NCBI GenBank assembly: GCA_963785875.1
Contig: CAWAWV010000006.1
Span: 53,590-117,589 of the forward strand
Direction: 5' to 3'
DNA: 64,000 nucleotides
DNA from: an uncultured Thermoleophilia bacterium
Lineage (GTDB): Bacteria > Actinomycetota > Thermoleophilia > Gaiellales > Gaiellaceae
Below are positions 23,513-63,609 of this stretch, piece by piece. Each line of letters starts with the position of its first letter. The stretch's first letter is position 1. The notes beneath the pieces were generated by a model, which did no database searches, was not told where the DNA came from, and saw only the letters and a list, made by a program, of their open reading frames with translations. A program made the position numbers and the translations under genes.

Positions 23513-24700
23513 TCAGACCTCTTTCAGCCCGACGTAGTTCTCGGCGAGGCTCGTCGCCGCCGCCGCGCGACGTCGTCACGTAGCGGAGCTGCGAGAGCTG
23601 GAGCCGCTCGTCGAACGCGTCGCCGCCGGGGAGCTGGTGCAGCATCGACGTCATCCACCACGAGAAGTGCTCGGCGCGCCAGACGCGGCGCAGGCAGTCG
23701 TCGCGAGTACGCGTCGAGCGCTCCTCGTCGCCGCCGTCGGCGTACCAGCTCGATCAGCGCGTCGGCGAGGACGCGCACGTCGTGGATCGCGAGGTTGAGC
23801 CCCTTCGCGCCGGTCGGCGGGACGATGTGCGCGGCGTCGCCCGCGAGGAAGAGGCGGCCGTGCTGCATCGGCTCGGCGACGAAGCTCCGCATGCCGGTGA
23901 CGCCCTTCTCGAGGACCGGGCCTTCGTTCGAGCGACCAGCCCGTCGAGCGCGGTCCGCGCGCGCGAGCTCCTCCCAGATCGCGCTCGTCGGGCCACTCCG
24001 CGAGGTCCTCGTCCGGGCGGCACTGGAGGTAGAGGCGGCTGAGCGTCGGCGAGCGCAGGCTGAGCAGGGCGAAGCCGCGCTCGTGGTGGGCGTAGACGAG
24101 CTCGTCGCTCGACGGCGGCGCCGTCGGCGAGGATGCCGAGCCAGCCGAACGGGTACTCGCGCTCGAACGTGCGCAGCACGCCCGGCGATCGCCGGCGCGG
24201 CAGACGCCGTGGAAGCCGTCGCAGCCGGCGATCACGTCGCAGTCGAGCCGCTGCTCGTCGCCGTCGTGCGCGAAGCGGATCCGCGGCGGCTCGCGACTCG
24301 AGCGTCGTGCACCGTCGACGCCCGCCGACCTCGAAGAGGAGCGGCAGGCCGCGCGCGAGCCGCGCCGGCGATCAGGTCCTTCACGACCTCGGTCTGGCCG
24401 TAGACGACGATCGTGCGCCGCCGGTCAGCTCGCTCATCGGCACGTGGTGCCGCTCGCCGTCGAACTGCAGGTGGATGCCGCCGTGGACGATCCCCTCGCG
24501 CTGCAGGCGCCGGCCGACGCCCGGCTCGCTCGAGCAGGTCGACCGTCCCCTGCTCGAGCACGCCGGCGCGGATGCGCTGCCTCGACGTACTCGCGGCTGC
24601 GCGCCTCGAGCACGACCGAGTCGATGCCCGGCCGCGTGCAGCAGCCCGCGAGGGTCAGCCCGGCGGGCCCGGCGCCGACGATCGCGACCTGCGTCCTCAT
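23513..24700 (-). pseudogene. pobA: 4-hydroxybenzoate 3-monooxygenase, at least 6 frame changes
   Basis: The gene is assembled from these blocks: [152 protein letters not shown] and [11 protein letters not shown]. They are scattered over ORFs 24434..25066, 24232..24561, 24381..25136, 23651..24235, 23754..24179, 23524..23892 and 23472..23654. Confidence 0.85.
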
Positions 24701-25763
24701 CCGTCTCTCGCGAGCACCGCGCTGCGCGATCGCGAACGCGCGGTTCGCCGCGGGCACGCCGCAGTAGATCGCCGCCTGCAGCAGCACCTCCTTGATCTCG
24801 TCGGGCGTCAGCCCGTTCCGGAGCGCGGCGCGCACGTGCAGCGCGAGCTCCTCGTGGTGGCCGAGCGCGGTCAGCGCGGTCAGCGTGATGCAGCTGCGCG
24901 TGCGGCGGTCGAGCCCCGGCCGCGCCCAGATCTCGCCCCACGCGTACCGGGTGATCAGGTCCTGGAAGTCGCGCCGTGAAGTCGGTCGTCGTCGTCGATC
25001 GCGCGGTCGACGTGCTCGTCGCCGAGCACCTCGCGCCGGACGCGCATCCCGCTCGTCGTCGCTCATCAGCTGCTCCTCCAGCAGTCGGTTGAACGCCGTG
25101 CGGCCGGCCGCTCGACGTTCGCGAGGTGCGCGGCACCGTCGATCACCGCGAGCCGCGCACCCGGGATCCGCGCGGCGAGCGCGTCGGCGTGCGCCGGCGG
25201 CGCGGTCGGGTCCTCGGCGCCGGCGACGACCAGCGTCGGCGCCTCGATGCGCTCCGAGGTCGCTCGCGCACGTCCCAGCCGGCGAGCGCCTCGCAGCAGC
25301 GTGCGTAGCCCTCGGCGGTCGACGGACGGAACATCTCCCGGCAGCGCGCGACGTCGCGGAACGACGCGGCGTGAACCAGCGGCCGATGACCGCGTCGACG
25401 ATCGCCTCGAGCCCCTCGCGCGCGCACGGTCGCGGCGCGTTCGTGCCAGCTGCGACGGCGATCGCCGAAGCGCGAGGACGTGCAGGCGAGCACGAGCTGG
25501 TCGAGCCGCTCCGGGCGCGTCGGCGGCGAGCCGCATGCCGACGGCGCCGCCGAGCGAGAGGCCGACGAACGAGAAGCGCCCGTCGACCGCGTCGAGCACG
25601 CCGCGCCGGCGAGCGCGTCGACGTCGAACGGCCGTCGACGAGCGGCGCGCCGCCGTGGCCCGGATGCTCGACCGACCGACCGCGGAGCCGCGACGAGCGC
25701 GCAGGCCTGCGGTCGCCACATCGCGGCGGTCGAGCCGAGCGAGCCGCAGAGGACGACGGTCAC
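24697..25763 (-). pseudogene. pcaL: 3-oxoadipate enol-lactonase joined to 4-carboxymuconolactone decarboxylase (PcaL-type fusion likely), frameshifted
   Basis: The N-terminal alpha/beta-hydrolase part reads VVLCGSLGSTAAMW, FSFVGLSLGGAVGMRLA and APTLVVAGAEDPTAPPAHADALAARIPGARLAVIDGAAHLANVERP. It then reads AFNRLLEEQLMSDDE with no stop, running into the CMD domain (RYAWGEIWARPGLDRRTRSCITLTALTALGHHEELALHVRAAL.NGLTPDEIKEVLLQAAIYCGVPAAN). Confidence 0.75.
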
Positions 25764-25766
25764 GCG

Positions 25767-61717: not shown

Positions 61718-62523
61718 TCACGCACGCGCCGGCGCGTAGCCGATCCGGGCCGAGATCTCGGCCGCGGTCCGGCGCAGCGGCGAGACGAGCCGCGCGAGCA
61801 GCTCGTCGAAGGAGACCATCGAGCGGTGCACCGCGAGGTTGATCGCGGCGACGACCTCGCCCGACTGCGAGAGCACCGGTGCGGCGATCAGCGCCGGCCG
61901 TAGGCGAGCTCCTCGTTGTTGACCGCGAGTCCGTTCGTCGCGGACGCGCTCGAGCTCGGCGAGCAGCTCGACCTGCGCCGTCAGCGTGTTCGGGCCGCGC
62001 CGTGTGGAACTCGGTCCGGCTTGAGCACGTCTCGAGCGCGCCGTTGGTCAGGTGCGCGAGCAGCACCTTGCCCATCGACGTGCAGTACGCCGGCAGGCGC
62101 GAGCCGACGTGGAGGTTCAGGTCGATGTCCCTCTGCCCCTGCCGCGAGGTGCGGCAGCGCTCGATGTAGACGATGTCGGCGCCGTCCAGCACGGCCATGT
62201 TGACCGTGTGCCCCGTCTCGTCGCTCAGCGCCTGGAGGTGCGGAACCGCGAGCTCACGCAGGTCCATCGAGTTGATCGCGGAGAAGCCCGAGGTCGAGCA
62301 CCCGTGGACCGAGGCGGTACTTCCGCGTCGACGGATCCTGATCGAGGTAGCCGAGCCCGGCGAGCGTCGCGATGTAGCGATGCGTGGTCGAGCGGCTGAG
62401 GCCAACCTCCCGCGCCAGGTCGCTGACCCCGAGCAACGTGCGACCGGTCCGGAAGGCTGAGAGGACCGCCAGCCCCCGCTCGAGCGACTGAGAGTATGCG
62501 CCTGGTCTCGCAGCACTCGCCAC
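61718..62523 (-). pseudogene. IclR-family transcriptional regulator, frameshifted
   Basis: ORF 62254..62523 gives SQSLERGLAVLSAFRTGRTLLGVSDLAREVGLSRSTTHRYIATLAGLGYLDQD (wHTH). ORF 61587..62564 gives LAVPHLQALSDETGHTVNMAVLDGADIVYIERC..LNLHVGSRLPAYCTSMGKVLLAHL. The tail is NLAVHRSMVSF..ISARIGYAPARA. Confidence 0.85.
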
Positions 62524-62564
62524 CAGCGTGTTCTACATGTTCGGACAGCTGTAGCGCCCAGCAC

Positions 62565-63609
62565 TCAACGGTCGACCCTGACGACGGCTTTCATCACCTC
62601 GGTGCGGTGGGTCATCGCGTACTCGATCGCCGCCGGGGCATCGTCCAGGCCGAACTCGTGGGTCAAAAGCTTGGCCGCGGTGTCGCGCCGGCGGGAGACG
62701 AGGTCGACGGCGTCGACGAACTCGCTCGCGCGACAGCAGCTCGACCCGAGCACGTCCACCTCCTTCAGCGGCAGATCGCCCACGCGCATCGGGGTGCGCT
62801 CGCTCGAGAGGCTGACGACGACGCACGCGGCCGGCGTTTGCCACGATGTCCACCGACACCTGCGCGAGAGCGGCAACGCCAGTCGCCTCGAGCACCACCG
62901 CCGGCCCGTCGCGTCCCGCCCATTCCCGTGCGGCTGCGACGAGATCGCCATCGGGGGCGAGCTCGAGCACGTCCGCTCCGATCGCCTCGCCAAGGCGAAG
63001 CCGGCTCCCGACCGCGTCGACGAGCAGCACCGAGGCGCCGCGGTCGGTCGCTGCCAGCGCAAGGGCCTGGCCGATCGGACCCGCGCCGAGGACGACCACC
63101 CGCTCACCGGCTTCCACCCTCCCCCGAGCGACAGCGCGAACGGCGATCGAGACCGGCTCGACGAGCGCGGCCAGCCCCGGATCGAGGTCTCCGACGGCGA
63201 AGACCTGTGCCGCAGATACCAGCAGCTGGTCTTGCAGCGCACCGTCCTCATGCACGCCGATCAGCGCGATGTCGACGCATGCGTTCGGGCGGCCGACGCG
63301 GCAGGCGAAGCAGCGGCCGCAGCCCGAGACGGGCCAGAGCGCCACGCGCAGCCCCGGCACGAGCTCGGGCGAACAGCCCTCGCCGACGTCAAGGATCGTC
63401 CCGGCGGCCTCATGGCCCTGGATGCGTGGGTACAGCGACGACGGGTCGTCGATCGTGCCGAGGTCGCCCAGGAAGTAGTGGAAGTCCGATCCGCAGAGAC
63501 CGACGGCCTGCGGTTGCACGAGCACCTGGCCGGGACCGGGCGCGCCGGGCTCGGGCACCGACACGACCTCCATGACTCCCCGCGACCGGGTCACGGCTGC
63601 CCGCATCAT
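62565..63609 (-). pseudogene. Zinc-type medium-chain dehydrogenase (threonine/sorbitol dehydrogenase-like), one frame break near nt 62830
   Basis: ORF 62533..63630, read from ATG 63609, gives MMRAAVTRSRGVMEVVSVPEP..GLCGSDFHYF..GHEAAGTILDVGEG..CGRCFACRVGRPNAC..VVVLGAGPIGQ. The C-terminus (LKEVDVLGSSCCRASEFVDAVDLV..IEYAMTHRTEVMKAVVRVDR) is in ORF 62565..63251. Confidence 0.8.

Follow-up and report, generated by a model that had tools for sequence, protein, structure and literature searches.

A probable modular supercluster for the catabolism of aromatic acids from lignin in an uncultured soil bacterium of the Thermoleophilia, masked by single-base assembly errors

Gene clusters of the beta-ketoadipate pathway, i.e., for the ortho-cleavage of protocatechuate, are known in Actinomycetota such as Streptomyces, Rhodococcus and Corynebacterium. 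Related catabolic systems are LigM/MetF of Sphingobium sp. SYK-6, the gal pathway of Pseudomonas putida (GalA, GalD, GalB, GalC) and the CoA-dependent, non-beta-oxidative ferulate route of Pseudomonas fluorescens with hydroxycinnamoyl-CoA hydratase-lyase (HCHL) and vanillin dehydrogenase. Here, counterparts of all four are described in a stretch of 64,000 nucleotides (the window; G000:C6:53590-117589) from a metagenome-assembled genome (MAG) of an uncultured Thermoleophilia bacterium, which comprises 3.14 Mb in 15 contigs and is 77% complete. In soil, Gaiellales and further Thermoleophilia are abundant; they are seldom cultured and metabolically obscure. In the excerpted account of Levy-Booth et al. 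(2022; PMC9296663), Thermoleophilia MAGs that assimilate 13C-lignin in stable-isotope probing were found to encode 'DesA-like' aminomethyltransferases, and protocatechuate ortho-cleavage was reported together with these demethylases to be widespread in such MAGs. The combination of DesA-like demethylation and protocatechuate ortho-cleavage is thus already known from the excerpted account for the class to which the window belongs, and the window shares both; beyond what that excerpt covers, it holds a physical supercluster, an extradiol/E1 operon linked to ligM, and HCHL.

It is probable that the stretch represents a genuine modular supercluster for lignin-derived aromatic acid catabolism in an uncultured soil Thermoleophilia (Gaiellales-type) that is masked by single-base errors of the assembly. 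The gene families, the completeness of the genes and their recurrence in relatives were observed directly. The annotation is based on intact orthologues from the relatives G007, G013, G003 and G024 and on frameshift-aware protein-to-DNA alignment; family scores (NCBIfam, Pfam, PDB) were mostly measured on the intact orthologues, and the cut-offs are those of the curated models. In this way 38 full-length genes were recovered with amino acid identities to their orthologues of 60-88%, and a second aldehyde dehydrogenase paralogue and one small open reading frame (ORF) also lie in the stretch. Every gene named by an earlier sequence-only reading of this DNA was found at the position given there, and its assignment of steps (ech, aldehyde dehydrogenase, LigM-type demethylase, pobA, pcaHG, pcaB, CoA-transferase, oxalomesaconate module) stands at the level of family or subfamily. 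In searches against solved structures, ech matched HCHL, the ligM product matched LigM, and the nearest structures of the aldehyde dehydrogenase are aromatic-aldehyde dehydrogenases. Of the roughly 40 kb it had regarded as devoted to aromatic catabolism, aromatic-specific support was found for only about 17 kb. The genes for the entry steps, the demethylation and the ortho branch are the following:

23516..24700, minus strand: pobA, 4-hydroxybenzoate 3-monooxygenase (NF006091, 594 bits; cut-off 351, G013 orthologue)
24704..25066, minus strand: pcaC, 4-carboxymuconolactone decarboxylase (TIGR02425, 179 bits; cut-off 156)
25067..25763, minus strand: pcaD, 3-oxoadipate enol-lactonase (TIGR02427, 204 bits, under the cut-off of 256)
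25770..26938, minus strand: pcaB, 3-carboxy-cis,cis-muconate cycloisomerase (TIGR02426, 376 bits; cut-off 356)
27466..28830, plus strand: LigM/DesA-type tetrahydrofolate-dependent aryl O-demethylase (NF047885, 623 bits; cut-off 580)
28858..30436, minus strand: MTHFR-like protein with C-terminal MTHFR_C (Pfam MTHFR and DUF5981, the MTHFR C-terminal family)
55601..56826, minus strand: pcaG and pcaH, protocatechuate 3,4-dioxygenase alpha and beta subunits (TIGR02422, TIGR02423)
56828..58361, minus strand: two-subunit CoA-transferase, presumed 3-oxoadipate CoA-transferase (Pfam CoA_trans and operon context)
59346..60187, plus strand: ech, HCHL (match to 2J5I)
60212..61692, plus strand: aromatic-aldehyde dehydrogenase, candidate vanillin or 4-hydroxybenzaldehyde dehydrogenase (Pfam Aldedh, 515 bits)
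61721..62523, minus strand: IclR-family regulator of the PcaR/PcaU/PobR type (TIGR02431, 250 bits, under the cut-off of 285; Pfam IclR_C and HTH_IclR)

We infer the substrates, the wiring between the branches and the role of the CoA-transferase from these assignments and from gene order. In the proposed flow, the HCHL-type ech would split hydroxycinnamoyl-CoA thioesters into acetyl-CoA and vanillin or 4-hydroxybenzaldehyde, which the neighbouring aromatic-aldehyde dehydrogenase would oxidize to vanillate or 4-hydroxybenzoate. The ech orthologue of G024 matches the Pseudomonas HCHL structure 2J5I with 450 bits and about 73% identity over 274 residues, and the window copy, read through 8 frameshifts, is 73.4% identical to that orthologue and carries the motifs MDLKEYFREVD, GLSEINWGIPPG and EDYLYAKL in its corrected translation. 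HCHL residues Tyr75, Glu143 and Tyr239, the roles of which were reportedly described by Bennett et al. in 2008, align as identical in ech, and Ser123 of HCHL is replaced by Thr. The aldehyde dehydrogenase starts 25 nt downstream of ech and has its top PDB matches among salicylaldehyde (439 bits), vanillin (437 bits) and 4-hydroxybenzaldehyde dehydrogenases (394 bits), with no NCBIfam equivalog cut-off reached. The pair thereby resembles the P. fluorescens route, with ech about 73% identical and the dehydrogenase downstream, and differs from it in that no feruloyl-CoA synthetase adjoins ech in the window. A close orthologue of the CoA ligase linked to ech in genome G022 was not found in the window's own 77%-complete genome, where the best match has 38% identity. 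In G022, which belongs to another family (locus L105, G022:C4:686000-696000), the genes around ech encode an AMP-binding ligase, which is likely a feruloyl-CoA synthetase, as well as a cupin, a MarR regulator and a major facilitator superfamily transporter; this ferulate module is more canonical than that of the window.

The piece that carries ech, the aldehyde dehydrogenase and the IclR-type regulator (3.2 kb, window 59319-62523) is absent from G007, the contig C35 of which (locus L014) is otherwise collinear; there, the Amidohydro_2 gene directly abuts the Zn-dependent alcohol dehydrogenase gene. No ech match was found in 18 relatives of the same genus, nor in the 3 genomes of that genus within the class sample described below.

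In the ortho branch, 4-hydroxybenzoate would be converted to protocatechuate by PobA, PcaHG would open the ring and PcaB, PcaC and PcaD would lead to 3-oxoadipate, which the glutaconate-CoA-transferase-like pair would activate, with the thiolase step encoded elsewhere in the genome. Like the pca clusters of other Actinomycetota, the window contains pobA, pcaHG, pcaB, pcaD, pcaC, a CoA-transferase pair and an IclR-type regulator; unlike these clusters, its pcaD and pcaC do not form PcaL, pcaF is absent from the cluster, the CoA-transferase is of the glutaconate type and the operon is split by 28.6 kb. On a second model, TIGR02360, PobA (G013 orthologue) scores 534 bits against a cut-off of 539, and PcaD also matches the PcaDC model NF051488 (232 bits). 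PcaH is above its cut-off (TIGR02422, 345 bits against 296) and PcaG is weaker (TIGR02423, 100 bits, under the cut-off of 126). The window copies are 74.9% (pobA, compared with the G024 orthologue; 17 frameshifts, no stop), 88.3% (pcaC, 3 frameshifts), 69.1% (pcaD, 9 frameshifts) and 70.7% (pcaB, 14 frameshifts) identical to their orthologues, and those of pcaG and pcaH are full length with 60% and 81% identity.

The apparent fusion of pcaD and pcaC, which had been read from the raw sequence as an actinobacterial PcaL, could not be substantiated as a single ORF over both domains. In G013, G007 and G003 both genes are separate, the stop of pcaD overlapping the start of pcaC as GTGA, and the read-through in the window is owed to one extra base; because indels occur about nine times per kb, such a read-through is no evidence for a PcaL fusion. 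The genes that had been called pcaIJ do encode a CoA-transferase pair, with which the pca operon of G013 and G003 begins, and their membership in the PcaIJ families has to be given up: the scores are 59 bits against 244 for PcaJ (TIGR02428) and 26 bits against 128 for PcaI (TIGR02429), and the nearest structure is glutaconate CoA-transferase (1POI). Because the pair is far below these cut-offs and of the glutaconate type, its role as 3-oxoadipate CoA-transferase is presumed from its operon position. No ScoA/PcaI-type match was found in the whole genome, and the control genomes did not show whether the actinobacterial PcaI is of the ScoA type. A PcaF thiolase was found neither in the window nor on its contig; thiolase matches lie on other contigs, the best PcaF-like one (G000:C4:438459-439616) scoring 525 bits against a cut-off of 597, which no control genome reached either.

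G013 and G003 carry one contiguous operon of CoA-transferase, pcaH, pcaG, pcaB, pcaD, pcaC and pobA, and in the window 28.6 kb of other genes (26.94-55.60 kb) separate pcaG from pcaB. Contig C35 of G007 shows the same gene order as the window over 28.9-63.5 kb and contains the junction of the thiamine diphosphate (ThDP) enzyme gene with pcaG, which argues against a misassembly. At the left junction of the 28.6-kb block, between pcaB and ligM, an ORF of 123 codons (window 26999-27370, minus strand) shows a strong bias for G+C in third codon positions (GC3) and has no Pfam match.

The demethylase would transfer aryl methyl groups to tetrahydrofolate, and the MTHFR-like protein is its probable partner, which would recycle the methylated cofactor. 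Compared with the solved Sphingobium LigM (5X1I), the demethylase aligns end to end (residues 8-456) with 534 bits and roughly 58% identity. Its corrected translation from the window contains the motifs GSRVY and NTLESGWIP, and the tyrosine of GSR-Y, which we infer to correspond to Tyr247 of LigM, is kept in both orthologue and window. As in SYK-6, a full-length LigM homologue with the catalytic-tyrosine motif adjoins an MTHFR-type gene; unlike in SYK-6, the demethylase belongs to a lower, DesA-like tier, the MTHFR-like partner has an additional MTHFR_C domain, no ligH-type gene was seen in the window, and ring cleavage is represented by pcaHG and a type I dioxygenase instead of LigAB/DesB. 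The two tiers of the LigM family lie at about 850 bits and about 620-650 bits. On the DesA model NF047633 the demethylase scores 675 bits, under the cut-off of 800. Vanillate is a plausible substrate, unproven because the DesA model gives the higher score, yet only the LigM cut-off is reached. No VanA_C domain match was found anywhere in the genome, which leaves LigM as its sole vanillate candidate. Within the limits of the 77%-complete genome, the absences that the sequence-only reading had listed for the window (feruloyl-CoA synthetase, pcaF and a vanAB-type demethylase) hold. In five genomes of the same family (G115, G145, G127, G151 and G086) two LigM-family copies lie 2-21 kb apart, which may reflect a division of labour between LigM and a DesA-like enzyme; the genome of the window has a single copy.

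Next to ligM lies a second operon, which was rightly singled out before as a separate extradiol/oxalomesaconate-type module:

30421..31385, minus strand: two-domain type I (VOC) extradiol dioxygenase (TIGR03211, 332 bits; cut-off 320)
31384..32001, minus strand: candidate RraA-type 4-carboxy-4-hydroxy-2-oxoadipate aldolase (Pfam RraA-like; NF006731, 176 bits, just under the cut-off of 179)
32001..32714, minus strand: GalB-type (PIG-L fold) 4-oxalomesaconate hydratase (solved GalB 5CGZ, 204 bits, full length)
32721..33660, minus strand: DUF6282, amidohydrolase-fold hydrolase (Pfam DUF6282, 200 bits)
33655..34426, minus strand: NAD-binding beta-hydroxyacid-dehydrogenase-like protein (Pfam NAD_binding_2 and DUF1932)
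34415..39350, minus strand: two E1 alpha/beta ThDP pairs and a xylose-isomerase-like TIM-barrel gene (Pfam E1_dh, Transket_pyr/Transketolase_C, AP_endonuc_2)

The VOC dioxygenase would open another catecholic substrate, and the GalB-type hydratase together with the RraA-type aldolase would yield pyruvate and oxaloacetate. The dioxygenase falls under the catechol 2,3-dioxygenase model TIGR03211 and matches the structures 9wgj (396 bits), 3LM4 and 7Q2A (274 bits each). The ring-cleavage enzyme of this operon is therefore not of the LigB type (LigAB, GalA, DesB), a statement limited to the operon, as a genome-wide search for LigB-type enzymes was not made. As in the gal pathway of P. putida, a GalB-type PIG-L hydratase adjoins an RraA-type aldolase; unlike in that pathway, a type I VOC dioxygenase takes the place of the LigB-type GalA, no GalD-type isomerase was seen in the window, and DUF6282, the NAD-binding dehydrogenase, two E1 pairs and the TIM-barrel gene are added. 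DUF6282 conserves the HxH, His and Asp positions typical of amidohydrolases; its predicted model has a pLDDT (predicted local distance difference test) of 88.9, and a fold search did not discriminate among generic amidohydrolases (dipeptidases, TatD, lactonases, and the PDC-hydrolase-like 2FFI and 4I6K). The E1 and TIM-barrel genes belong to the same operon, and NCBIfam gives only matches similar to pyruvate dehydrogenase E1. With dioxygenase, dehydrogenase, amidohydrolase-fold hydrolase, hydratase and aldolase, the operon contains five enzyme types, as many as there are steps between the 4,5-cleavage of protocatechuate and the formation of pyruvate and oxaloacetate. Tentatively, this ligM-linked operon of soil Actinomycetota may specify an undescribed, non-orthologous route from a demethylated lignin monomer to 4-oxalomesaconate, in which the VOC dioxygenase, the beta-hydroxyacid-dehydrogenase-like enzyme and a DUF6282 lactonase would replace LigAB/GalA, LigC and LigI, and the E1 pairs would add a further C-C cleavage. 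It is the part of the cluster most worth following experimentally.

How ligM is connected to the two ring-cleavage branches can be approached from its neighbourhood. More than 400 genomes were found to encode LigM relatives with 73-100% identity, and most of the best 80 are labelled Thermoleophilia, Gaiellaceae/Gaiellales or other Actinomycetota; the closest named loci come from uncultured soil MAGs assigned to Thermoleophilia, Gaiellaceae and Gaiellales, of which many are long-read 'MFD' assemblies. Among these best 80 genomes, the VOC dioxygenase was present within 10 kb of ligM in 63, DUF6282 in 59, GalB and the RraA aldolase in 57 each, the NAD-binding dehydrogenase in 54, the E1 subunits in 47-53, the TIM-barrel gene in 41, an acetoacetate-CoA-ligase-like gene in 39, the MTHFR-like gene in 37 and the Amidohydro_2 gene in 31, and pca, pobA and HCHL genes in 1-3 each. 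Hence, ligM is syntenically tied to the extradiol operon and not to the pca genes. One possibility, to which we give appreciable weight though somewhat less than an even chance, is that the LigM/DesA-like enzyme mainly feeds the extradiol operon, e.g., from syringate via 3-O-methylgallate and gallate to 4-oxalomesaconate, and that the pca genes serve protocatechuate derived from 4-hydroxybenzoate. Besides the neighbour counts for dioxygenase, hydratase and aldolase, this is favoured by the DesA model giving the demethylase a higher score than the LigM model does and by the placement of Thermoleophilia sequences in a 'DesA-like' clade, as far as the excerpt of PMC9296663 goes. However, the demethylase stays below the DesA cut-off and above that of LigM, no VanA-type enzyme was found in the genome as an alternative for vanillate, and NCBIfam labels the dioxygenase as a catechol 2,3-dioxygenase and not as a gallate dioxygenase. 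Such a wiring is compatible with a genuine supercluster for lignin-derived aromatics, and both could hold.

Several points weigh against the supercluster as proposed. PcaD, PcaG, the RraA-type aldolase and the IclR regulator are just under their equivalog cut-offs, the CoA-transferase pair fails those of the PcaIJ families, and the bit score of the demethylase is higher for DesA than for LigM, with only the cut-off of the latter reached. No feruloyl-CoA synthetase was found in the 77%-complete genome. The region of about 39.5-55.5 kb and the E1/TIM-barrel genes at 34.4-39.4 kb have no aromatic-specific assignment, the annotation stems mostly from orthologues and not from the error-ridden sequence of the window itself, and the proposed substrates are assigned from homology.

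The combination of genes had been regarded as an odd mix of routes usually found in different phyla, and this was not borne out by the relatives. In a sample of 150 genomes evenly drawn from the class, LigM was found above the cut-off in 9, i.e., 8 of 23 genomes of the window's own family and 1 of 12 of one other family, PcaH above the cut-off in 15, a GalB-type hydratase in 10 and HCHL in 3. All nine LigM carriers also have a GalB-type hydratase and PcaH. Two genomes of another genus of the same family, G115 and G145, contain all four of LigM, GalB, PcaH and HCHL, which lie within 56 kb in G145. As related genomes do not count as independent cases, these numbers characterise a trait of the lineage and do not amount to a statistical test. 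The placement of the ligM unit differs among genomes: in locus L076 a series of ten genes on a single strand extends from the TIM-barrel gene to that of the dioxygenase, and ligM and HCHL come next, in L097 the unit lies beside pobA-pcaCDB, and in L088 beside pcaHG, the CoA-transferase and the aldehyde dehydrogenase, so that the stretch consists of modules that are reshuffled yet kept near one another. The mix of routes is thus an ordinary trait of this lineage, and the contrast between phyla reflects which organisms were studied first and not a chimera. The recurring set, leading from hydroxycinnamates, vanillate-type compounds and 4-hydroxybenzoate to two ring-cleavage routes, supports a role of these bacteria in the turnover of lignin carbon, and it also directs attention to enzyme variants that are thermotolerant or unusual, for use in lignin valorisation.

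An alternative origin would be a cross-phylum mosaic, in which LigM, GalB/RraA and HCHL were gained from Proteobacteria by horizontal transfer into an actinobacterial pca background. The patchy occurrence of HCHL in the class and its identity of about 73% to the Pseudomonas enzyme, the restriction of LigM, GalB and PcaH to few families, and the variable order of the modules speak for it. On the other hand, the G+C content of the window is about 72% and stays between 0.67 and 0.78 in every 2-kb bin of the stretch, the high-GC third-position signal runs on across it, the more than 400 genomes with LigM relatives are represented mostly by Actinomycetota among the best 80, and the operon of ligM and extradiol genes is a conserved unit in 54-63 of these 80. 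We regard the mosaic as a whole as unlikely; for single modules, above all HCHL, a horizontal origin is possible.

The frameshifts themselves could be taken for genuine pseudogenising mutations in a degenerating cluster, and the deposited sequence does break every gene, with 1-31 inferred frameshifts each. Over the 37.0 kb of the 38 genes, 331 frameshifts were inferred (8.9 per kb), of which 245 are single-base insertions. However, only one in-frame stop remains across the 38 genes after correction, and the corrected proteins are 60-88% identical to their orthologues. Blocks of 10 kb that are either clean or ridden with frameshifts alternate across all 15 contigs of the genome, so that the mosaic of broken and clean sequence extends far beyond the cluster; the window itself includes a clean block at 9.2-23.6 kb. 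Furthermore, independent short-read soil contigs from three other studies do not have the extra base at 30763, 31107 and 32382; the insertion sites inferred by the alignment (30762, 31109 and 32383, respectively) are only 1-2 nt away. Among sequencing runs, the share of the stretch's words stayed at or below 13% in each. The frameshifts therefore read as the raw-read-like consensus error of a long-read assembly and not as gene decay, which we consider extremely improbable; low coverage may be the cause of these errors. A link of the indels to homopolymers was not seen, as 2% of the sites are near runs of at least 4 identical bases compared with 4% at random. Within the target stretch the coding phase switches every few hundred bases, each gene is spread over 1-5 frames in tblastn, none of the raw ORFs is reliably intact, and a strict GC3 filter for ORFs on the raw sequence overlooked most genes. 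As a lesson for the method, an indel error of about 1% means that raw ORF calling on this assembly would fragment every gene described here.

A chimera of proteobacterial lig/gal DNA and an actinobacterial contig, produced by assembly or binning, is conceivable for a 77%-complete MAG of poor consensus, but hardly credible given the collinear contig of G007, which spans the junction of the ThDP enzyme gene with pcaG, the ligM units beside pca, pobA or HCHL genes in MAGs of independent projects (MFD, SMAG, SPRUCE), and the steady G+C content of 0.67-0.78.

The remaining genes of the stretch are the following:

39466..55540, both strands: central block with no aromatic-specific assignment (Pfam, NCBIfam)
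58426..59286, minus strand: Amidohydro_2 protein (Pfam Amidohydro_2, 160 bits)
62568..63576, minus strand: Zn-dependent alcohol dehydrogenase (Pfam ADH_N and ADH_zinc_N; generic NCBIfam matches only)

The Amidohydro_2 protein was considered as LigI, LigJ or LigW and no such match was found, its only PDB match being the uncharacterised BB4693 (3IRS). The central block, part of which is co-conserved with ligM, encodes a GMC oxidoreductase (plus strand), the second aldehyde dehydrogenase (plus strand), a small VOC protein, DUF5938, an acetoacetate-CoA-ligase-like enzyme, a Zn-dependent alcohol dehydrogenase, a further GMC protein with a 117-aa partner, a five-gene Liv-type ABC importer and a benzoylformate-decarboxylase-like ThDP enzyme, which scores 460 bits on the benzoylformate decarboxylase model, under the cut-off of 493. 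The acetoacetate-CoA-ligase-like enzyme exceeds the cut-off of NF002937 (877 bits against 639), and the remaining genes of the block have generic matches only. A beta-keto acid derived from lignin side chains would be a speculative substrate of the acetoacetate-CoA-ligase-like enzyme. It was also considered as an analogue of VceA, which acts on vanilloyl acetic acid, and this was rejected: as VceA is acetyl-CoA-dependent and vceA and vceB together span only 1.5 kb, no argument from homology can be made. The gene of this enzyme (44073-46072, minus strand) carries 31 inferred frameshifts, the most of any gene here. The second aldehyde dehydrogenase gene (window 41106-42562, plus strand) follows the GMC oxidoreductase gene and has about 69% DNA identity to the aldehyde dehydrogenase gene at 60.6-61.7 kb.

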